A stretch of 37,461 nt of DNA from Parcubacteria group bacterium LiPW_41 (GCA_007375535.1 VMEM01000001.1:1-37461), one strand, 5' to 3'. Shown: positions 24,742-35,518, counted from the first letter of the stretch. Notes: generated from the sequence alone by a model not told the origin. Translations and numbers: made by a program.

Positions 24742-25311
24742 TTATTCTTCTTGATAATACATTTGTGCGACTAATTGAAGTGTGAACTGCGTTGAACCAC
24801 TTCCCATCTCTGATGCGGTTGAAAGCTCAAAATTATTAATGTTAGTTACGCGAACATTTGTTTCAAGAGCACGCAAAAAGTCACGAATAGACTCATAAGG
24901 TCCTGAAACAGAGAAATTGAGATCGAGCTTCCCCAATCGCTTCGCAAGAATTTGCTTGTTTGCCTCTGCTGCTGTTGCCTTAATAGTGAGGGCATCAATG
25001 GTTACTTTATTCGAACGAATGACTGATTCAACTTGATGAAGTGCTTGAGTCATATTTGGACCGACAGGTAATGCCTGTGAAATTGCCTCACGAACTTTTG
25101 TAGCATTTTTCATTTCAACAAAAGCCTTGTTTACCTGTTCTGTCGCATTTTTTTGATTATTAAAAAGATTTTCTGCAACGCTTATCTCAGCGCGCTTCTT
25201 TTCAATTTCGGTATATGTTGGTCGAATAAGTGACCCATACACAACAAGCACACCAATTAAAAATATTGCTGCAATTCCTATACTTAATACTCGTTTTGAT
25301 GATGCTCTCAT
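24742..25311 (-). CDS. pilO: PilO-like protein
   Basis: TM, coiled coil, ALP, VSGPYESIRDFLRALETNVR. Confidence 0.82.
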   Translation of the reverse strand: MRASSKRVLSIGIAAIFLIGVLVVYGSLIRPTYTEIEKKRAEISVAENLFNNQKNATEQVNKAFVEMKNATKVREAISQALPVGPNMTQALHQVESVIRSNKVTIDALTIKATAAEANKQILAKRLGKLDLNFSVSGPYESIRDFLRALETNVRVTNINNFELSTASEMGSGSTQFTLQLVAQMYYQEE

Positions 25312-25314
25312 AAT

Positions 25315-25878
25315 TTATAATGCTGGTGTTACAAAGAAATTATCTCTAAATACAAACTCAATCTCAAAACTGACTTTATTTGCCTCTTTGAAACGCATTT
25401 GTGTCAATACTGCACTTTTTAATTCTGGAGCAGAATCAAACACAGAAAGTTGTTGAACTAATGCTTCAGACGTCGCCGCAACGCCTTGGATCTTTAACGA
25501 TCCCCCATCTGCGGCATATGACGCATTTGTGTAATATACATTTGTTGCAGTTTTCTCTTCTAAAAATTTAAAAATATTTCCAGAAAATTGATGTCTATCA
25601 AGAACCTTCTTTAAATTTAACGTCTGGGAATAAAAATTTACATATTTTGTCTGGTCGTCTGGATTTATTTTTTTTGCAAGAGCTGTTATTTCTGTCTTCA
25701 AAGTTTCTTGTCTCTTGTTGAGATATGATGCATATCCAAACTTCACACCAGCAAAAATGAATAATGAAAAAATAAACAAAACAATGGAAAACACCATAAG
25801 TTTCCAAGGAAGCCCAACTGAGGGGGTGTCAACAATGAACTGATCCGCGAGCGCAGTTTGTGGATCTCTTTGTTCCAT
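25315..25878 (-). CDS. pilN: PilN-like protein
   Basis: TM, coiled coil and ferredoxin-like domain (LKIQGVA...LVQQL); lies between pilM and pilO. Confidence 0.78.
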   Translation of the reverse strand: MEQRDPQTALADQFIVDTPSVGLPWKLMVFSIVLFIFSLFIFAGVKFGYASYLNKRQETLKTEITALAKKINPDDQTKYVNFYSQTLNLKKVLDRHQFSGNIFKFLEEKTATNVYYTNASYAADGGSLKIQGVAATSEALVQQLSVFDSAPELKSAVLTQMRFKEANKVSFEIEFVFRDNFFVTPAL

Positions 25879-25887
25879 TAGTATTAT

Positions 25888-26214
25888 TATAGCAAACGCA
25901 GCGAGAGAAATGGAAATGTCTTCATTTCTATTTCCGAAGCAAGTGCAGCTAAAAGCAAAGCTTTATAACAAATGGAATGAGGAAATGGACACTATGTGTA
26001 CATTTCCGAATGAAATGCGGTTACAAGCGAAGCTTTATAGCAAACGCAGCGAGAGAAATGGAAATGTCTTCATTTCTATTTCCGAAGCAAGTGCAGCTAA
26101 AAGCAAAGCTTTATAGCAAACGTAATGAGGAATATGCAGACGAAGTATGTATATTCCGAATGAGTGTAGCTGCACGAAGTGCTATAACAAATGGAATGAG
26201 GAAATGGACACTAT
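25888..26214. repeat. Tandem array of 71-76 bp hairpin units (A-B-A-C-B')
   Basis: Units start with TATA(G/A)CAA at 25888, 25964, 26036, 26112 and 26183. Units 1 and 3 are identical (76 bp); unit 5 is a truncated copy of unit 2. Confidence 0.92.
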
Positions 26215-26223
26215 CTACACCTT

Positions 26224-27324
26224 CTACACAAAGAATCGTAATGCAAGCCCAGAAGCAGATGCAAAAGTTCTCCCAACTTGTTTTCGAATCGGCTCAATTT
26301 CCGCAGGCAAAACAAAGTGTCGCAACGAATCTGTTGTTTTTACTAAAAGTCCTGTCGCATCTTTTACATATTGATCAATCCCCGCTAGATTGGCACCACC
26401 ACCAACGAGAACTATTTCTGAAACCTTCTTTTTACTTGTTCTCTCAAACTCATTTCTTACCCTTACGCACTCATTAAAAATAACATCGAGAAACGGGTAA
26501 AGCGCCTGCGAAATTTCATACTCTCCCCCAGAACCAAGAAGTCCTTTATGTTTTTTTAACTCTTCTGCACGAAGTGGGGAAATGCTTAACGAGCGAGCAA
26601 GCGACTTCGTGAGCGAGGACCCCCCCGAATCAACTTGAGTGGAACGCTTAGAAATTCCACCTTCAATAATATAAATTCCAGTTGATTCTCCACCTATATC
26701 AACAACTTGAACAATCGGATCTGTCGGAGACAAGAGCGACCGAATGAGGGACTGATGTTCCACTTCTAGTGCTCGCAATGTAATCCCAACACTTTCAAAT
26801 ATTTTCTTTGTCGTATTAATAACCGTAAGCGGTACAGCAACAATAAGATATCGGGACATATCCTGTCCCCTTTCATTTTGAAATGAGTCCATTTTCAACC
26901 ACTCGATGTTCACCTGATCCATTGGAAGTGGAACATATTGTTTCACTTGAAATTTTAATGCCGCCGCAGCTTCGTTTGGTGGAAGTGTTGGCATATCAAT
27001 TGTTACAAAAAATGCATTATAAACAGGAATCGACACAATAGCATTTTTTGTTTTTGGATTCACCTCTTTTAATAATTTTGAAAGCAACTGTGAAATATCT
27101 CGTTCTGATATCTTCAGTGCACTTGTTTGAATTGCTGCATTTCCCCTACTTAAATAATCTTTCGTTTCGAGTAATCCATAGTTTTCAAGCGCCAAAGAAT
27201 CTCCCCGTTTTCCCACCTCAACAAGTTTTATTGAAGTAGTCCCAATATCAATACCAAGAACTCGCGCTGAAGAAAGCGAGTTTTTTACATCAGAGAAAAA
27301 AGATTTTATCCAAAAGTCAATCAC
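26224..27324 (-). CDS. pilM: Type IV pilus assembly protein PilM
   Basis: Actin-like motifs LGIDIGTTSIKLVE, YVPLPM, VDIGGEST, AEELK, LVGGGANL.GI. Likely start GTG 27324, 7 nt after TGGTAAAAT. Confidence 0.93.
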   Translation of the reverse strand: MIDFWIKSFFSDVKNSLSSARVLGIDIGTTSIKLVEVGKRGDSLALENYGLLETKDYLSRGNAAIQTSALKISERDISQLLSKLLKEVNPKTKNAIVSIPVYNAFFVTIDMPTLPPNEAAAALKFQVKQYVPLPMDQVNIEWLKMDSFQNERGQDMSRYLIVAVPLTVINTTKKIFESVGITLRALEVEHQSLIRSLLSPTDPIVQVVDIGGESTGIYIIEGGISKRSTQVDSGGSSLTKSLARSLSISPLRAEELKKHKGLLGSGGEYEISQALYPFLDVIFNECVRVRNEFERTSKKKVSEIVLVGGGANLAGIDQYVKDATGLLVKTTDSLRHFVLPAEIEPIRKQVGRTFASASGLALRFFV

Positions 27325-27372
27325 TGTGCTTATTTTACCATACTTTTTTGAGTATTGAGATACAATAAATAT

Positions 27373-28089
27373 GTGACACCACACCCAAGTGAAATACTCA
27401 AAAGTTCGTTGTTTCCTCCACGATGTGTAATTTGTAATATAGCAACGAACAATGAAAAATATGAAGCAATCTGTGATTCATGCATAAGGGGATACACTCC
27501 GCTTTCTGGATTTTCCTGTCCTGAATGTGGGAAAAGAATTCCAACACTTCATTCAATCTGTCACCGGACAAATTTTCTCCTCTGTGCATCACAACTATAT
27601 TCAAATCGTCCTACAGAAATACTTATTCAACATCTAAAATTCCTTTATATAAGATCAGCAGCAATTCCCGTCGCACATATGATGTTACAGACACTAAACA
27701 GTGTCATACAGGAAATCCCATTCGATCTTTCAAAAACTTTACTCACACCAATTCCCCTTGCTTCACGTAGAGAGCGAGAACGCGGATTCAATCAATCGGC
27801 GCTTCTCGCAAAAGAGATTCATTCGTGTATTCCACAACTTATCTATGCACCAAAAATACTAAAACGAATTAAATATGAGTTGCCCCAAACAAAAACACAT
27901 ACACAAAAGGAGCGTAACATAAATTTAAATAATGCCTTTTCTGCAGATATACCAACTACAATACAAGGACTTCCAATAATACTCATAGATGATGTTTATA
28001 CAACAGGAGCAACAATAAAAAATGCAGTAAAAAAATTAAAAGAAAAAGGAGCAGGAAAAATTATTGTTCTCGTTGGAGCGCGCACATAA
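27373..28089 (+). CDS. comF: ComF family competence protein (Zn finger plus phosphoribosyltransferase)
   Basis: LFPPRCVIC..CDSC..CPEC, RGFNQS, LIDDVYTTGAT. Likely start GTG 27373. Confidence 0.92.
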   Translation: MTPHPSEILKSSLFPPRCVICNIATNNEKYEAICDSCIRGYTPLSGFSCPECGKRIPTLHSICHRTNFLLCASQLYSNRPTEILIQHLKFLYIRSAAIPVAHMMLQTLNSVIQEIPFDLSKTLLTPIPLASRRERERGFNQSALLAKEIHSCIPQLIYAPKILKRIKYELPQTKTHTQKERNINLNNAFSADIPTTIQGLPIILIDDVYTTGATIKNAVKKLKEKGAGKIIVLVGART

Positions 28090-28094
28090 AAACA

Positions 28095-28116
28095 CCGCCA
28101 GTCCATAGACTGGCGG
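28095..28116. repeat. REP-like palindrome
   Basis: CCGCCAGTC-CATA-GACTGGCGG between convergent genes. Confidence 0.75.
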
Positions 28117-28155
28117 AATTCCTAAACCCAAGTTGCTAATAACTGACCCCTTTCT

Positions 28156-31100
28156 TTATTGTTCCTCTGTTGTCTGCCTCTTTCGTCCCACATTTATACA
28201 ATCACTATTTTCTTTGCATTGTTTTTCAGAAGACTCTTTTTTGGTAAGCCCGAGAATATCCGGCCCAACCCACTTCGTAAGCGAAAAGTCACAATAACTG
28301 TTTCGAACACAAACAGGAGATTTTTCAGTGGTATTTACAGCAGTATTTGGAAGTGTCTTTCCCGATCCATCAGCCATTGACCACTTTATTTTTGTTGGAT
28401 CACTTGGATTCTTTAAACCCACACGATAATAATATACTGTGTCTGGCTCTAACTTGTCATCTTTAAACGACGGCTGAGTTACTGGATTTACATTTGCAAT
28501 CACAAAATAATCTTCATTTGCATTATACGCAGCACCCGCAGAGAATATTCCCCCAATCATGTTTTTGATTTCTGAGGCAAATGAAGCAATCGCATCATAC
28601 ACACTCGCAGTAAATGAGCTCACCGGCGATGATTTTTTACTCGTTCCATCCCCTACAAGTAATTTACTTATTTTTACACGCAGACTCTCAACAACTGATT
28701 TTTGATCTCCAAATTGAGATAATTTGATTCCTCCAAGATGTGCACTTGAACTTGATGATGAAGCGGTTGTAGTAGTGAACCGTGCTTGAGCAGACATGTC
28801 AGATTGAAGATATCCAACATTCGGAGATCCAACCCACGTACTGAAATTACAAGTAGACAATTTGTCTTTATATCCAGCAGTGAGACTACTTCCTTTTTGA
28901 TATGCGCCACCAGAATATTGCACAGGACACGCCGTTCCACCACTAACTGTAGGGGTCGCACAAACACTCGGGGAAACACTCACATCATAATCGAAACAAT
29001 ATTTCCCAAAATTTGCTATAGCCGAGAGACTATTTTGGTTTATAGTAACTGTGCACGTGTCACTTGTACCACTACACGATCCACTCCAGTTTGTGAAATA
29101 ACAGGCGTTAGTATCATCTGAATGGTCTACAACTATTTGTGTATCACGTTGATATGCGCCACCAGTATGCGGAGATTGACAAGCTGTATATGATTTAATA
29201 CTGACGCTTCCACATCCGTCACCTCCAACATCAGCAGTAAAGTTATAACACCACTTCAAAAATTCTGCATTTGCATATATTTTTCCGAGTCTTGGCGTGT
29301 TACATGGATTTTGTGTTGTACATCCCGAAACACCATTCCACGTATTAAAGAACGCATTCTTTTCGCTGGTAGTGTCGGGTGGCATATAATTCCATTCAAT
29401 TTGTGCTTGTTCCTCCGGCTCGTAATCTGCAATAACCTTTCCCGTCCTCGTATTCAAATTTTTCAAATTTTCAGTAACATATCCAAAACCTGCCCCATCA
29501 CCATCAACACCAATAATCACACGATACGCAGTTCGCACCTCAACCGATGGTGCCTCATCTATCGAAATTACACGAACAAACTTTCCAGTTATTGGATCGG
29601 TGGTTTCATAATAAGGAACAATTTTGTATGTATATATTTCTCCCGCTTCTAATGTGTTATCCTCCCAACTTAATGTACCACCTCTCGTCGAGGAGCCCCC
29701 AAATTTAACAACATCAGGATTCAACGTTGTGGTTGCTAAATCAATATTTTCAAATGAAATGGCGTTACCTCTTTTAACCGCGGTAAGTCCGTTACGTTGA
29801 ATAATAGTCCCTGTTTCGCGCACCGAATCATCGGTCCATGTTAAGGTTGTTTTGTATGGCGAATAATCATAATTCCAATGGTTCGATGCAAGTGTTTTCA
29901 CAGGTCTTGTCGATGTTGCCTTTATGACTGGCAATGGCGGCGTTGTAGTCGCGACAAGTTTCCCATCAGTTGATGAGGCATTAAATAGTGAACACGCTGG
30001 TTTTGGACGATATTGATCATTCACACTACACTCGGACCCAAGACACTCTGTATATTTTGGAACAATTGATGAACATGCACGAATTCGATAAAAGAATGTT
30101 GTTCCCTCTCCCTCACGTCCCACGTTATCACTGAGATAAACAGAAGATGTAACACCAGTAAATTTCTTTGGATTTGTTGAAGTAACTACTACCGGTCGAG
30201 TATTGTGAAATGTCCTATTTGCAACACATGCTGGATCTCCTTTTGCTGCGTCCGTCGAACACCCTGGATATATTTCGCTTGCCTTATCTTCATTTCTAAA
30301 TCGATTCACTGTCGAACTACTTCTCTCAAGCCAAATATCAAATGGAGTACTCGTAGTAATATTTTTCCATGTAAGTGGGATGGTTTGTGAAGTAACTTTT
30401 GCTTGTGTAGTTGTAACACCAAACTGTGTTGTTGTTGCGGGGGTAAGTTTTATTCGCTCAACTTGGAACGTGTAGTTTGTGCTTGACGTTGCGTTGTCTT
30501 TCCAATTCAAAAGCAACGTAGTGAGATTTTGCGCATATACTCTAAGTCGTGATGGATTTTCAGCAACTGGAGCATCAGGCTTACACCCAGAAGTGTACAT
30601 ATAGTACACCTTGCTTGGCGTTGGATATCCTGCAGAAAGACGATAGTAGTAAGATGTAGATGTTGAAAGTGAATTATGCGTGTACACACCACTTCCAATA
30701 CTTGGATTCTTTATCGACTTCCAAGGACCGCCAGGAGATGTTGTTGTTGAATATTCCAAGATCAACATATGGTTTGCATATGTTCCATAATTTGGATCAC
30801 TCCACTCCTTAATCCACTCCACATTGATCGAGCCCTTGTCTGGTGTGCAATAAAATTGATATGGATTTTTTGTTATTGAAAGCGTAGTGCTCGCTTTTTC
30901 TGTAGTCGAAGAAGCAAAAACAATTGCGGTCCCCACATCAGTCATATCAGGAGCGGTGAATGTCGTCGTTGCAATATTCGAATCTGGAGAAACCGTCCCA
31001 AGAGTTGTGGACCAACTTACATTCTGACCAGGAACAACCCATAGTGTTACTCTTTCACGTGGTGCATAACTGATTGCATCTGGAGATTTCTTTATGGAAA

Positions 31101-32955
31101 GTGATGGAGGTGTAGAATCTTCAAATACAATCCATCCACCAACAGTGGGTCCGCCCCAAATAATACCCTTTAGTTTATTATTAATTGCACTTCCATTCTT
31201 TTTACACGTCTCTCCAGTTTGATAGGTTGTTGTTAAGCCCGTTTCTGGATTTGTATAAGGAATTGCTTTTGTCTCACTATTTCCAAAACAGAGTCCATAT
31301 TTAAATGAACCATCTTGTGTCGCCCCTCGTAAATTTACCCATCCGTCCCACCCCGGTGCGTTTGGATTTTCAAACAAAAATCGTGCCCACCCACTAATCT
31401 GGCCGGTTGCCTCATCATATACAGCACACCCACCAGTTGGACACTTAGCAGAATCAACAACCTCAAACGAAAGCCATCCAAATAATGGATTCCATGCTCC
31501 ACCACCAAGTTTATATTTACAATCAGTCCCCTCAATACAACTTGAATTTACTTTTTCCTCCGTAATATATGCACTATTCACCTTCAACCAACCACCAGTT
31601 TGCATCCAGCCCTCTCCATCTAGAGTAAACTTCTTTACAATTGGAACAAGATTTGCTGAAACGACGTTTGAATAAAGATCAGATTTCTTTTTTGATATTT
31701 TATCTTCGACATACGCCCTAAAAAGATAGGTCGAACCAATAGGAACAGATGCAGTCAATTCAGGAACATCTCCAACTTCCAAAACAGTGTGTCTCCCTAA
31801 TTCTGTATACGTTGATCCACCATCCGTCGATTTTTCAATTACTACATATCGAGGAAAATTATTTGCGGTATCAACCCATGTAAAGGTGAGAGGAACAGGC
31901 GATGGTGTGCCGGTCACTCGATTAAATAAATTTTTAGTGATAGTGAGCTCTTCAGGCGCGGGTATTCCAGTGACCACTGAACCTTCTGCATATTTTGATG
32001 TTCCAATTACTCCATTATTGTCTGTTTTTGCGAAAACTCGATAATAAATTTTCTGACCGCCAGAAAACTGCTGACTCACATTGTAATTTGTGTCACTTCC
32101 TGTACTAGACGCAAATACCGAAGAAAAATTTGAAAACAACGAAAGTTCAGCAATGTAACTTGTTGCCTCAGATGAAGTATCCCACGACAATTTAAGTTTC
32201 CATTCCCCGGTTGATCCAATCGGAGTCAATGTCGGACTTACATTCTGTGGTGTTGGAGGAATAATAAGTGTTTCAGAAGCATTAGAAAATGCAGCACCAC
32301 CATCATCGGTCAATGTAACTGTTCCAAGAGGACAAGAGTCCCCAATTTCATATGCTTTAATATTAAAATAATATGGCAGCGTCGAAGATGGTGCTCCCCA
32401 ATAAACTGGAGAAGAAAGAAGATTTATTGCTTTTGGTATTTTAGTTCCATCTTTCGCCTCATAGACGCGATATCCACTAAACAACGGCGTCATTCCTGAA
32501 GACGCATCCCAAACAATTTTTGCAGTGCCAGATTCCCAAGTTTGTTTTATATTCGCAGGGACTGATGGAGCTTTTATATCTAGTGTTGTAGTGGAAACCT
32601 GATCACTCCAATCAGAACTTCCAAAACTAGAATTTGCTCGTAATGAAACTGTATAAGATTTTTTCTTTTCAAGTCCTGTAATTGAGTGGGTTAGTGTACA
32701 CGTTGGAGAACTACATGAGAGTCCTGAAATCTGCGTAAACGAGTTTGAACTTACTCTTTTATCAAAAGAAGAGGCCACACTATCTTCCGAAAAATTTACA
32801 TCAATGCGACACGCAGAAATAGGAACGAGTGATGTTATTCTTGGCTTATTTGGCTTCGCTTGTGCATCACTATTGTTTGCTGAATAAAGAAAAATTCCAA
32901 CAAAAATAAAAATGGACGCGAGGAGTAAAAAACCAAAAAGTCGCTTTGGATTCAT
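28156..32955 (-). CDS. Large secreted surface protein/adhesin with fibronectin type III-like repeats
   Basis: Signal peptide; Thr/Ser-rich; several FN3-like units (L.W.D.S..E.G, DDKLEPDTVYYYRV); Trp/Gly repeats (GGAWNPLFGWLSF, GWARF, WDGWV.L.G); B-repeat-like units (FTNWSGSCSG). Confidence 0.85.
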   Translation of the reverse strand: MNPKRLFGFLLLASIFIFVGIFLYSANNSDAQAKPNKPRITSLVPISACRIDVNFSEDSVASSFDKRVSSNSFTQISGLSCSSPTCTLTHSITGLEKKKSYTVSLRANSSFGSSDWSDQVSTTTLDIKAPSVPANIKQTWESGTAKIVWDASSGMTPLFSGYRVYEAKDGTKIPKAINLLSSPVYWGAPSSTLPYYFNIKAYEIGDSCPLGTVTLTDDGGAAFSNASETLIIPPTPQNVSPTLTPIGSTGEWKLKLSWDTSSEATSYIAELSLFSNFSSVFASSTGSDTNYNVSQQFSGGQKIYYRVFAKTDNNGVIGTSKYAEGSVVTGIPAPEELTITKNLFNRVTGTPSPVPLTFTWVDTANNFPRYVVIEKSTDGGSTYTELGRHTVLEVGDVPELTASVPIGSTYLFRAYVEDKISKKKSDLYSNVVSANLVPIVKKFTLDGEGWMQTGGWLKVNSAYITEEKVNSSCIEGTDCKYKLGGGAWNPLFGWLSFEVVDSAKCPTGGCAVYDEATGQISGWARFLFENPNAPGWDGWVNLRGATQDGSFKYGLCFGNSETKAIPYTNPETGLTTTYQTGETCKKNGSAINNKLKGIIWGGPTVGGWIVFEDSTPPSLSIKKSPDAISYAPRERVTLWVVPGQNVSWSTTLGTVSPDSNIATTTFTAPDMTDVGTAIVFASSTTEKASTTLSITKNPYQFYCTPDKGSINVEWIKEWSDPNYGTYANHMLILEYSTTTSPGGPWKSIKNPSIGSGVYTHNSLSTSTSYYYRLSAGYPTPSKVYYMYTSGCKPDAPVAENPSRLRVYAQNLTTLLLNWKDNATSSTNYTFQVERIKLTPATTTQFGVTTTQAKVTSQTIPLTWKNITTSTPFDIWLERSSSTVNRFRNEDKASEIYPGCSTDAAKGDPACVANRTFHNTRPVVVTSTNPKKFTGVTSSVYLSDNVGREGEGTTFFYRIRACSSIVPKYTECLGSECSVNDQYRPKPACSLFNASSTDGKLVATTTPPLPVIKATSTRPVKTLASNHWNYDYSPYKTTLTWTDDSVRETGTIIQRNGLTAVKRGNAISFENIDLATTTLNPDVVKFGGSSTRGGTLSWEDNTLEAGEIYTYKIVPYYETTDPITGKFVRVISIDEAPSVEVRTAYRVIIGVDGDGAGFGYVTENLKNLNTRTGKVIADYEPEEQAQIEWNYMPPDTTSEKNAFFNTWNGVSGCTTQNPCNTPRLGKIYANAEFLKWCYNFTADVGGDGCGSVSIKSYTACQSPHTGGAYQRDTQIVVDHSDDTNACYFTNWSGSCSGTSDTCTVTINQNSLSAIANFGKYCFDYDVSVSPSVCATPTVSGGTACPVQYSGGAYQKGSSLTAGYKDKLSTCNFSTWVGSPNVGYLQSDMSAQARFTTTTASSSSSSAHLGGIKLSQFGDQKSVVESLRVKISKLLVGDGTSKKSSPVSSFTASVYDAIASFASEIKNMIGGIFSAGAAYNANEDYFVIANVNPVTQPSFKDDKLEPDTVYYYRVGLKNPSDPTKIKWSMADGSGKTLPNTAVNTTEKSPVCVRNSYCDFSLTKWVGPDILGLTKKESSEKQCKENSDCINVGRKRQTTEEQ

Positions 32956-32965
32956 TTGTATTTAT

Positions 32966-33120
32966 TATAGCAAGCGCAGTGAGGAAAATGAATGCGAAGT
33001 ATACATTTTCCGAGCGAGCGTAGCTGCACGAAGCGCTATAGCAAGTGTAGCGAGGAAATGAATACACTAAGTGTATTCATTTCTGAAACAAACGCAGTTA
33101 CAAATTTCACGCTATAACAA
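32966..33120. repeat. Two tandem hairpin units of the same family as 25888
   Basis: TATA(G/A)CAA boundaries at 32966, 33037 and 33113 (71 and 76 bp). Confidence 0.88.
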
Positions 33121-33125
33121 AAAAC

Positions 33126-33152
33126 AAAATCTCCCTTTTTATGGGAGATTTT
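33126..33152 (-). terminator. Terminator of the 406-aa gene
   Basis: AAAATCTCCC-TTTTTAT-GGGAGATTTT with an A-tract on the + strand left side. Confidence 0.7.
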
Positions 33153-33157
33153 AAAGT

Positions 33158-34378
33158 TTAGAAACAGTTTGCTCTACAAGCAATTCCACCACTCCCCCAC
33201 TTTCCCCAACTCATCTTCCACCTACCATCTCCAGCATTATAATAGACATCACAATATCCGCCATTGCTTCCGTCATGTAACATCTTACCAAGAGCACAGA
33301 AGCTGTGTTCTCCAAGATCCTGCACTTGATTTTGTGCTGGCCCATTATATGCACTACCAACCTCTGTAGTACGAATAACGCCAGAAGGAGAAAAAACGAT
33401 CTTTCCCGCTACAAGTTTTCCAGAGGACGCCCCTTGTCTCGTAAGTATAAACTCATCATACACAGAATCTGCTGGTACCGATTTATCGATACACGTCATA
33501 TTATCAATACTTCCACACGATTTATATGTAACACAATTCACTCCTTCTAATGAATATCCAGGATATTTATCACAACTATAACCCTCATCATATCCTAAGG
33601 CGCCCAACGTATTATTATCCCCCGCTTGTGGTACATATGGATTTGGACATTCAAAATAACTTGGGTTTGTATCACATTTTAATATGTTTTGAGGACGTGC
33701 TCTTTCTGCTAAAACCTTCTTAATTAAAGAATACTGTTTTGGATTATTATTAAAAGAAATAATGGTCCCCGTTCGATAATATTTCACAGGAATACTATCA
33801 ATAGAACCAACATACACATCTCCTCCATCATAATAAATTTCTGTTCCCGTTCCCTTAACCCAAAAGTTTGTTCCTCCCGTCCCACTTCCCGTTCCGATGT
33901 CAGTCCATCCTTTTTTGTTATACAACTTTACTTTTCCATCTCCAGTAGAATCATAATAAATCGTTCCAGGGGCTGGAGTCGTCCCACTATCAATTGGAAG
34001 TTGAAGTCCCTTTGTGTAAAGCCTAAAAGGACCAAATGCAGAGATTGAAACCGGACCACTCCCATTCTGAATATTGATCCCTAAACTTAAATCATTAAGA
34101 TCAATAAAATTATTACTCGAAGCATTTACGATTTTTCCACTCAATGTTACATTTGTTGCGCCCGGATCAGTGTTTAATCCAAATCTCAAAGTCTTTAAAT
34201 TAAGGTCTCCAGGTTTTTCTTGCCCCGTATTGCCTGTATCAACTGGTTTACTTTTTAGGCCCCCAGGAAATGGAGCATCTGGACCAAATGGATCCTGTTG
34301 TCCACGCACAATCAAAATTCCTGCAGACAAAAATAATACGACAACGGATAAAACAAGTGAAATATATCTCTGTTTCAT
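33158..34378 (-). CDS. Secreted fibre/adhesin-like protein with Cys-rich C-terminal modules
   Basis: Signal peptide; GTIYYDS...KLY...GW and W...GTEIYY.GG.V.VG fibre-like segments; 10 Cys in the C-terminal half. Confidence 0.8.
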   Translation of the reverse strand: MKQRYISLVLSVVVLFLSAGILIVRGQQDPFGPDAPFPGGLKSKPVDTGNTGQEKPGDLNLKTLRFGLNTDPGATNVTLSGKIVNASSNNFIDLNDLSLGINIQNGSGPVSISAFGPFRLYTKGLQLPIDSGTTPAPGTIYYDSTGDGKVKLYNKKGWTDIGTGSGTGGTNFWVKGTGTEIYYDGGDVYVGSIDSIPVKYYRTGTIISFNNNPKQYSLIKKVLAERARPQNILKCDTNPSYFECPNPYVPQAGDNNTLGALGYDEGYSCDKYPGYSLEGVNCVTYKSCGSIDNMTCIDKSVPADSVYDEFILTRQGASSGKLVAGKIVFSPSGVIRTTEVGSAYNGPAQNQVQDLGEHSFCALGKMLHDGSNGGYCDVYYNAGDGRWKMSWGKWGSGGIACRANCF

Positions 34379-34387
34379 TACTATTAG

Positions 34388-34468
34388 TATAGCAAACGCA
34401 GCGAGGAATGTGTACGCAAAGTGTATGTATTCCGAAGCAAGTGCAGCCGCACGAAGTGCTATAGCAAA
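34388..34468. repeat. Single 72-bp hairpin unit flanked by 9-bp direct repeat TATAGCAAA
   Basis: TATAGCAAA at 34388-34396 and 34460-34468; same family as 25888 and 32966. Confidence 0.88.
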
Positions 34469-34566
34469 TTGGAAAATAGTAGTTAGAACAAAAGGACTAG
34501 GGTTTTAAAACTAAAAATAAGCGTACTTGACAAATTGATATTGCTATTGATTTTTTAGTGGTTTGG

Positions 34567-34604
34567 TGGTATAATGTAATTACACATTAACAAATAAGGA
34601 AGGT
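34567..34604 (+). promoter_or_regulatory. Extended -10 promoter and Shine-Dalgarno site
   Basis: TGGTATAAT followed by AAGGAAGGT just before ATG 34610. Confidence 0.6.
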
Positions 34605-34609
34605 GCAAA

Positions 34610-35518
34610 ATGAAACGTACATTTTTCGTAGTACTCGTAACACTGTTCGCGCTCTTCCTTACTATAAATAGGATTGAGGCACAAACAGGATCTGGGTTGG
34701 ACACACTAACCCAAGTCAACGGATGGAGATTGGTAGAATATGCTCCTGGCGTAACACTTGCCAAGACATGGTTTGTCAATGATCCATTTCATGGAAAGTT
34801 CTCTCAGTTTTTTGAAGTAAATAGAAATAGTCCAAATGTTGCAAATGACAGAGAATATTATGCGATATTCAAAAAAAATCTAAAGACACGCATAAAAAGA
34901 TCCAATTATCTTCAATATAGTTTTAAATATTCCCATTCAAAACCAAATCTTGGGGTTGAAAGTCCATTATTGGATATTGCATTTGAAAATAATGGGACAA
35001 AAACAAACCTCAAAAATATTGTAAATATTGATAGAGATATCTGGACTACATATCCAATTTCAATTAATGATATTGGAGTTGATTCGGTTGATTGTATATA
35101 TTTGCGGATTAGTGGAAATTTCAAAATAACTGTTGTTCAAATTGATTATCTTGTATTTGCAGATTTGCCGCTTAATGGAATAACTTCGGTAATAGAAGAT
35201 TTCGAAGATAGCACAATCACCGATGTTAAGGATAAGTTCACTATTCCAATCAGTTATTACCTTTCTCAGAACTATCCCAATCCATTCAACCCAAGCACAA
35301 CAATCACATTTCACCTTTCAAAATCTTCGTTTGTAACTCTGAAAGTATTCGATGTTCTTGGAAGAGAGGTTGCGACATTGGTGAATGAGGAAAAATCTGT
35401 CGGCGAACACTCTGTTCAATTCAACGCCTCTCACCTTTCATCCGGTATGTACATCTACCAAATCAATATTGGTAATGGACAATTTGTCCAAACCAAAAAG
35501 ATGATACTGATGAAGTAG
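34610..35518 (+). CDS. Secreted protein with C-terminal T9SS type A sorting (Por secretion tail-like) domain
   Basis: Sec signal ending IEA|Q; C-terminus LSQNYPNPFNPSTTI.F...VTLKVFDVLGREVATLVNE...G...V.FNAS.LSSGMYIY...TKKMILMK. Confidence 0.9.
   Translation: MKRTFFVVLVTLFALFLTINRIEAQTGSGLDTLTQVNGWRLVEYAPGVTLAKTWFVNDPFHGKFSQFFEVNRNSPNVANDREYYAIFKKNLKTRIKRSNYLQYSFKYSHSKPNLGVESPLLDIAFENNGTKTNLKNIVNIDRDIWTTYPISINDIGVDSVDCIYLRISGNFKITVVQIDYLVFADLPLNGITSVIEDFEDSTITDVKDKFTIPISYYLSQNYPNPFNPSTTITFHLSKSSFVTLKVFDVLGREVATLVNEEKSVGEHSVQFNASHLSSGMYIYQINIGNGQFVQTKKMILMK

Follow-up and report, generated by a model that had tools for sequence, protein, structure and literature searches.

A structured repeat seated in extended -10 boxes of Patescibacteria promoters, probably inserted in one direction after TATA

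REP sequences are palindromes of 20-40 nt with a conserved GTAG head, which are usually located at gene ends and flank their own RAYT gene. The BOX elements of Streptococcus pneumoniae are built as boxA-boxB(n)-boxC, and the IS200/IS605-derived PATEs, which move by a 'peel and paste' single-stranded DNA (ssDNA) mechanism, leave no target duplication and have an element end that resembles the target. The Correia elements of Neisseria (CREE, or NEMIS) occur in more than 100 dispersed copies and in many contexts, with terminal inverted repeats of approximately 26 bp and a TA target duplication (PMC2649163; PMC10969869); in one strain, a potential "Black promoter" is created by only 18 of the 123 copies (PMC2649163). 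The repeat described here, with a unit of 71-77 bp, was found in the first 37,461 bases of contig C5 (the window) of Parcubacteria group bacterium LiPW_41, an ultra-small groundwater bacterium that its genome size and gene content place in the Patescibacteria (Paceibacteria). Its assembly (G000) comprises 746,768 bases in six contigs, with a G+C content of 37%, and is rated 98.8% complete. To our knowledge almost nothing is known of the promoters, repeats and mobile DNA of the tiny, tightly packed genomes of this phylum, and a literature search yielded no paper on such elements in Patescibacteria.

Like CREE, the unit is a short non-coding repeat often located 5' of genes, and carries at its end a partial -10 box that is completed by the flank (PMC2649163); CREE ends begin with TATAG(C/T), and presence or absence varies between strains (PMC2649163; PMC10969869). 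Unlike CREE, the Patescibacteria unit always sits in a -10 box, lacks long inverted ends, has a strand-specific fold, stacks head to tail and occupies about five loci per genome. With the PATEs it shares the absence of inverted ends, hairpins on one strand (21 G·T against 2 A·C mispairs) and an oriented insertion 3' of a short target; unlike them, it has no co-occurring cognate TnpA, its central hairpin varies freely, and it is confined to -10 boxes. REP/BIME families mobilised by RAYT are likewise short, structured, extragenic and clustered in tandem, and a weakly RAYT-like gene is present in G000, but this gene is flanked by a different palindrome. Integron attC sites also combine conserved outer boxes with a variable terminal hairpin, a folded single strand, a common orientation and a head-to-tail arrangement; however, RYYYAAC/GTTRRRY boxes are absent from the unit alignment, and neither an integron integrase nor cassette open reading frames (ORFs) between units were found. 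BOX elements are comparable as modular short intergenic repeats with a variable number of middle modules, but they show no sequence or module similarity to the unit and are not tied to -10 hexamers. On this comparison the Correia "Black promoter" appears the closest in logic, and the single-strand elements of the IS200/IS605 type the closest in anatomy. An earlier note on this DNA had described a promoter-targeting, MITE-like element, of which the position at the promoter box stands and the MITE part does not. A classical MITE was rejected: the terminal inverted repeats span at most 7 nt (TATAGCA/TGCTATA, overlapping the target), the sole inverted repeat inside the units is the central hairpin, no target duplication is demonstrable, and no related transposase was found.

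We propose, at a probability of roughly 0.58, that the repeat is a genus-restricted element that inserts one way after the TATA of extended -10 boxes and thereby rebuilds the promoters it enters. The G000 genome (0.75 Mb) contains 11.5 copies, distributed over four arrays and one decayed copy. A search of the whole assembly with an nhmmer profile built from seven window units returned 11 full units with E values between 2e-11 and 3.5e-19. Every one is located on the + strand of C5, with seven inside the window (arrays of four plus a truncated fifth, two, and one) and four beyond it; only three weak extra matches were obtained, one of which (C5:111115-111143) is a decayed unit without the central hairpin. 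The positions, unit numbers (4.5, 2 and 1) and shared orientation given in the earlier note were reproduced at all three window arrays. Counted genome-wide, the repeat is not widely spread, being limited to five loci on one contig, each at a -10 box.

On the minus strand, the proximal edges of arrays 1 to 3 read TTGCTATAAT, TTGCTATAAT and TTGCTATACT, followed by 7, 8 and 7 nt to the ATG, in agreement with the 7-8 nt noted earlier, and that of array 4 reads TTGCTATAAT followed by 6 nt. A scan for two-hexamer promoters passed the 406-aa promoter only (TACACA, 17 nt, TATACT with TG), and no -35 box is conserved at the array promoters. The spacing of the boxes matches that of the genome at large, which speaks for promoters. 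Among 843 ORFs of at least 100 aa, an exact TATAAT lies 6, 7, 8 or 9 nt before the first ATG in 24, 14, 11 and 7 cases (56 of 843), and at every other distance from 0 to 43 nt in 0-4 ORFs each, which suggests that TATAAT at 6-9 nt from the ATG is the general layout of leaderless promoters in this genome. Shine-Dalgarno-like motifs (GGAG, GAGG or AGGA) peak at 4-8 nt before the ATG in 210 of the 843 ORFs, so that both types of start are used. The 127 TATAAT sites outside repeats carry G at -14 in 48%, T at -15 in 39% and T at -17 in 57% of cases; these -10 sites thus follow an extended -10 consensus with a weak -35, which the unit end TTTGC-TATA fits, and the TGnTATAAT at 6-9 nt from the start codon of the array promoters has the modal spacing of the genome.

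The same arrangement was found wherever the unit occurs. Seventeen arrays at 10 different promoters were counted: five in G000 (including the decayed one), three in G001 and two in G002, which represent two other species of the same genus, and seven on metagenome contigs. In G000 they precede pilN, the 1599-aa gene, the 406-aa gene, the gene of a 154-aa membrane protein and, for the decayed copy, a 297-aa gene; in G001 pilN, the syntenic 1599-aa position and adk (five units at these three sites); and in G002 pilN and the syntenic 1599-aa position. On the metagenome contigs the sites are a large-protein position that is the same as that of the 1599-aa gene (L152), the GAPDH gene (L148), the 297-aa gene (L149), the genes of 185-aa and 296-aa secreted proteins (L150), and one promoter found twice (L145 and L146). 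The specificity for pilus and surface genes that had been suggested from the window is thus lost among the relatives, which carry the unit at adk, GAPDH and an sRNA-like gene. The overlap of the unit edge with an extended -10 box, in contrast, extends to all: the proximal edge reads TTG(C/T)TATA, then AT or CT from the flank, in 17 of 17 arrays, the insertion directly follows TATA in a single orientation in every one, and the ATG opening an ORF lies 6-10 nt past the box in 15, a spacing typical of the leaderless promoters of the genome. The other two arrays (L145 and L146) precede a rod-like small RNA (sRNA) candidate of approximately 150 nt, upstream of an LD-carboxypeptidase gene.

In G000 the unit-free counterpart of this candidate lies downstream of a TGTTATAAT box (C6, approximately 104310-104480) and is 76% conserved between genomes over its roughly 150 nt. 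Its predicted fold, with -52.5 kcal/mol over 175 nt, is an extended closed rod with a small hairpin behind it, a shape resembling that of 6S RNA, and it has no Rfam match at E <= 1. Runs of a 7-nt unit (TTTTGAG three times, or TTTAGGA-like) were also seen in some promoter-upstream regions, namely on C6 upstream of 133206 (adk), on C1 upstream of 21192, and on L187.

A covariance model of the whole unit matched four of 61 related genomes (G000 with 11, G002 with 6 and G001 with 5 matches, and G031 weakly), and a model of its core matched two of 151 genomes across the order (G000, and G096 with one 35-bit match). Eight loci on seven contigs were retrieved from metagenomes with a specific pattern, six of these contigs being confirmed by the covariance model, and none of 12 pattern matches on viral contigs was confirmed by the model. 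The unit model matches few related genomes and is confirmed on no viral contig; therefore the family is essentially confined to one genus. A scan of a genome collection with a loose pattern, in which none of the 80 loci examined at the DNA level among the matches listed was model-confirmed, is uninformative on distribution. The weak matches in G031 (34-35 bits) and G096 (35 bits), possibly distant relatives or chance, were left out of all counts; one lies between convergent gene ends and the other, in sense orientation, between genes. The latter (G096:C1:71041-71100; L196 1501-1560) is a match to the unit core on the fold's own strand, with GATATAAT between it and the next ATG, immediately ahead of the latter. 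The match may represent a distant relative used in the opposite orientation.

Comparison of orthologous loci revealed the unit to be present in one genome and absent from another at six promoters, including one clean insertion of 73 bp. This clearest pair consists of metagenome contig L146, which has the unit, and contig C6 of G000, which does not, with flanks that agree at approximately 60 of 70 nt on the upstream side and at 62 of 70 nt on the downstream side. The extra 73 nt of L146 sit directly after the TATA of the native TGTTATAAT box, with junctions reading TATAGC on the far side and TTGCTATACT on the near side. The distal copy reads CTGTTATA and the proximal unit end TTGCTATA, with TATA alone common to both; since the two differ, the unit brings its own half of the box and does not duplicate eight target bases, and a 4-bp duplication is here indistinguishable from none. 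The unit-free sites keep the -10 box at the same spacing, as observed for the 406-aa and 154-aa promoters in G001 and for adk, the 185-aa gene and gap in G000. The earlier proposal that the insertion regenerates its target is consistent with these occupied and empty pairs, in which insertion after TATA rebuilds TGnTATA(A/C)T.

For the pilN array the change can be polarised. No unit was found in 13 genomes of other genera, pilM abuts or overlaps pilN in most other genera (by eye, its frame extends to approximately 15 nt from the pilN ATG in at least nine of the 13 genomes), and on L182 the sequence TGATATAAT stands 7 nt before the pilN ATG with no repeat. With no unit in these genomes, and with pilM running up to pilN, the array at pilN therefore represents the derived state. 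In the window the truncated distal unit of array 1 enters the last codons and stop of pilM (26183-26226), and the insertion history has therefore reshaped the 3' end of this gene.

Units stack in tandem, as also claimed in the earlier note, and their numbers differ between species and strains. The pilN array counts 4.5 units in G000, three in G002 and two in G001, with a proximal unit conserved across the species (approximately 90%) that shows a compensated change at the loop-closing pair, and the 1599-aa array of G000 has one extra promoter-side unit relative to its relatives. Array 1 has a period of 148 nt, corresponding to a two-unit block in 2.3 copies, and its unit 2 is almost identical to unit 2 of array 4, 16 kb away. 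Contigs from two other studies (runs X2 and X4; run X3), with 90-99% identity, bridge pilN and pilM while skipping 165 or 241 nt, and their central hairpin, of 18-20 nt, belongs to a different unit type; they are supporting evidence only, as short-read contigs can collapse repeats. Contigs from what is probably the source sample end at the repeats; neither these contigs nor a chimeric joint from 26204 to 33005, which reflects shared repeat words, were taken as evidence.

These data also bear on an alternative in which the unit is a cis-regulatory promoter module (a binding platform, a cruciform-forming upstream element, or an insulator separating a terminator from the promoter that follows) that selection would keep and that would have spread by recombination or gene conversion and not by transposition. 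Arrays at the same sites are retained in three species, their units are far better conserved than the adjoining intergenic DNA, modules are exchanged between arrays (array 1 unit 2 and array 4 unit 2) and hairpins are swapped between strains, and the unit always lies between the end or terminator of the upstream gene and the -10 box. However, pilN, secreted proteins, adk, gap and an sRNA candidate form no coherent regulon, the -35 region falls in an unconserved arm of the variable hairpin, and the orthologous promoters presumably work without the unit; moreover, a double-stranded binding site predicts neither strand-specific G·T pairs nor the long-range covariation described below. We regard a regulatory module as improbable.

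The variable central hairpin within a conserved scaffold, recognised in the earlier note, was found again with compensatory changes, but the fold has a strand, which that note missed: it is formed by the + strand, antisense to every downstream gene. RNAalifold predicts for this strand a 4-bp outer helix, a 2-bp helix, a G-C pair beside tandem G·A pairs and the variable hairpin, and almost no structure for the minus strand. In a strand-neutral scoring with equal penalties for G·T and A·C (30 units, three duplicates dropped), the 27 distinct central hairpins contained 302 Watson-Crick pairs, against 21 G·T, 2 A·C and 8 other combinations. In 29 units, 97.7% of the 174 cells of the outer helices are paired, and the 2-bp helix is paired in all 29 (AU 17, GC 11 and GU 1 at one position, CG 16, UA 10 and UG 3 at the other); these values were matched in none of 500 shuffles, and sliding the partner by 1-3 columns lowered pairing to 14-49%. 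With RNA parameters the + strand is the more stable one in all 11 units, and with DNA parameters in 10 of 11, with one tie. For four units its z-scores range from -2.9 to -4.3 as RNA and from -0.9 to -3.8 as DNA, against -0.9 to -3.4 and +0.4 to -3.0 for the minus strand. From the strand-biased G·T mispairs and the covarying outer helices it follows that a single-stranded form of the antisense strand, either RNA or ssDNA, is under selection. The many G·U pairs lean towards RNA; the loops of the central hairpin and of the 3' mini-hairpin are mostly GAA or AAA triloops, and triloops of the GNA type are a known stable motif of DNA too. Readings of the internal loops as a kink-turn, a self-cleaving ribozyme or attC were considered and dropped, with no supporting motif seen and no Rfam match. 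At gathering score Rfam returned three tRNAs only in the window, and nothing below E 1.4 for array 1.

The fold is likewise central to an alternative in which the arrays are genes for divergent structured sRNAs, the RNA and not mobility being kept by selection. In this view a transcript of the + strand would begin a little way into the first unit, cross one to four folded units and end where the upstream gene has its two-way terminator. Such a transcript would be the folded strand, with its frequent G·U pairs, its lower z-scores as RNA than as DNA, and a consensus fold that equals the minimum-energy fold as RNA. Owing to its symmetry, the -10 region reads TATAATA on the gene strand and TATTAT on the other, and in 13 of 16 intact arrays a + strand TA..AT hexamer extends over the start of the unit (among ordinary sites, 60 of 130 have A at -6); hairpins flanked by A-runs and T-runs follow several arrays. 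Yet the + strand -10 has neither a TG extension nor a convincing -35, no terminator separates the G000 pilN array from pilM, Rfam gave no match, and the base-exact insertion polymorphism is left unexplained. We consider an origin as sRNA genes unlikely; both this reading and that of a regulatory module are compatible with an insertional origin of the units.

Several points weigh against an insertional element. Except at pilN the polymorphisms are unpolarised, so that the unit-free sites could be precise losses, and as only TATA is common to the target and the unit end, recombination at this microhomology is possible. Copies are very few, at five loci of a single contig; G000 has three promoter-like TTGCTATAAT sites that carry no unit; and the -10 boxes are putative promoters recognised from their position alone. 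All three species have the pilN and 1599-aa arrays at identical sites, a retention that fits function as well as mobility. Finally, the searches for a cognate enzyme came out negative: G000 has no match to rve, DDE_Tnp_1, Resolvase or the TnpB zinc ribbon, the sole tyrosine recombinase is Xer-like (XerC/XerD/XerA, 246 bits), the only Y1- or RAYT-like gene is flanked by an unrelated 31-bp palindrome and not by the unit, and Y1_Tnp, present in 22 of 61 relatives, is missing from the repeat-bearing G001. The integron integrase model scores 128 bits on the G000 tyrosine recombinase against a cut-off of 265, and in the whole-assembly nhmmer search no ORF was flanked by units; the transposase with matching ends that the earlier note had envisaged was thus not found in G000.

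The Y1-like gene of G000 (C1:10286-10984; L159 1285-1983) encodes a 232-aa protein with the only Y1_Tnp match of the genome (33.8 bits), and this protein is weakly RAYT-like (33 bits against a cut-off of 80, NCBIfam NF047646). Its palindrome, which is perfect, lies in frame inside the ORF and again right after its stop, with two other copies at C1:183998 and C6:99395; with four genome copies in total, it looks like a separate small REP-like family.

This gene would be the natural candidate if the unit were a non-autonomous element of the IS200/IS605 or REP type, moved as ssDNA by a Y1 (HUH) transposase-like protein and inserting 3' of TATA on the folded strand. In keeping with such a mode of movement, the unit lacks terminal inverted repeats and a clear target duplication, bears its hairpins on one strand, inserts in a fixed orientation 3' of a fixed tetranucleotide, and has in its 4-bp helix an internal TA or TG with which the two final bases of the target pair. 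However, Y1_Tnp does not track the repeat, and the gene was rejected as mobiliser on this distribution: G001, which is 100% complete and has a private adk site, gave no Y1_Tnp match at E <= 0.001, and 19 of 22 Y1-bearing relatives lack the repeat. The Y1-like gene has its own, unrelated palindrome, and a four-base target alone would not confine copies to -10 boxes. The GC skew, negative on the + strand across the window, would also place the folded strand on the leading-strand template, a weak argument that is confounded by gene orientation. Movement by a Y1 protein is accordingly rated very improbable.

In the insertional reading that we prefer, structured units of 71-77 bp would have been inserted, in a fixed orientation, directly after the TATA of the -10 hexamer in extended -10 promoters, most of which probably drive leaderless genes. 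The gene-sense unit end TTTGCTATA, together with AT or CT from the flank, would restore TGnTATA(A/C)T with its spacing to the start codon unchanged, leaving the old half-box distally as TATAGC or TATAAA. In G000, T at -7 is missing from all 11 hexamers at internal or distal junctions, which read TATAAA or TATAGC, and the old half-boxes on the far side of the units are presumably dead. New insertions at the rebuilt box and unequal recombination between units could then give arrays of one to 4.5 units, which would differ between species and strains and swap modules. The antisense strand folds as a rod, comprising the 4-bp helix, the 2-bp helix, the tandem G·A and the variable GAA/AAA-capped hairpin, followed by a mini-hairpin, and this folded single strand, as ssDNA or RNA, would most likely be the intermediate of spread.

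A more specific and doubtful proposal is a promoter-homing element of a new kind, in which the folded strand would be pasted into the melted box of active extended -10 promoters, the target end pairing with an internal guide in the 4-bp helix, by a host or unrecognised enzyme in place of its own transposase. Such an element would be nearly harmless because the interrupted box is rebuilt, and could persist in a 0.75 Mb genome with little spare DNA, with everything upstream of -8 moved away from the gene; targeting of this sort, if mechanistic, would be an unusual mode of site choice. A repeat tied base-precisely to promoters at about ten genes is in any event a rare case, and a tractable one of a repeat entering a promoter without destroying it. 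It lends independent support to promoter location and leaderless starts in an uncultured lineage, and offers a natural series of 0, 1, 2, 3 and 4.5 units for the effects of upstream DNA on extended -10 promoters.

Table 1. Repeat arrays, putative promoter boxes and neighbouring genes; positions are those of the window unless a contig is given.
Feature	Coordinates	Strand	Remarks
Array 1 (pilN), four full units	25888-25963, 25964-26035, 26036-26111, 26112-26182	+	units 1 and 3 identical
Truncated fifth unit of array 1	26183..26216	+	E 0.062; break within central hairpin; abuts pilM stop
Array 2 (1599-aa gene)	32966..33120	+	units 32966-33036 and 33037-33112, then terminal TATAACAA
Array 3 (406-aa gene)	34388..34468	+	one unit 34388-34459, then terminal TATAGCAAA
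Array 4, four units	C5:42541-42841	+	5 kb past the window
Putative extended -10 box of pilN, TGCTATAAT	25886..25894	-	TGCTATA from unit, AT from flank; 7 nt to ATG 25876-25878
Putative extended -10 box of 1599-aa gene, TGCTATAAT	32964..32972	-	8 nt to ATG 32953-32955
Putative extended -10 box of 406-aa gene, TGCTATACT	34386..34394	-	7 nt to ATG 34376-34378; also in consensus scan
pilO	24742-25311		PilO 32.6 bits; adjoins pilN
pilN-like gene, 187 aa	25315..25878	-	PilN 21.3 bits, just under cut-off of 22.8
pilM	26224-27384		PilM_2 114.5 bits; upstream of pilN; stop codon 26224-26226
1599-aa protein	28156..32955	-	hydrophobic signal-like N-terminal segment; no Pfam family
Intrinsic terminator of 406-aa gene	33125..33153	-	directly distal to array 2; also in two-hexamer scan
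406-aa protein	33158..34378	-	hydrophobic N-terminus; no Pfam family

The minus strand of the window encodes a type IV pilus locus with PilM, a PilN-like protein, PilO, two T2SSE ATPases and one T2SSF protein, and a ComF-like gene is located on the plus strand. Beyond array 3, a gene for a 302-aa protein (34610-35518, + strand) carries a Por_Secre_tail domain (51.7 bits), the C-terminal sorting domain of type IX secretion, which is unexpected outside the Bacteroidota. Its putative promoter at 34547-34575 is textbook-like (TTGATT, 17 nt, TGGTATAAT), and is accompanied by a Shine-Dalgarno-like AAGGA.

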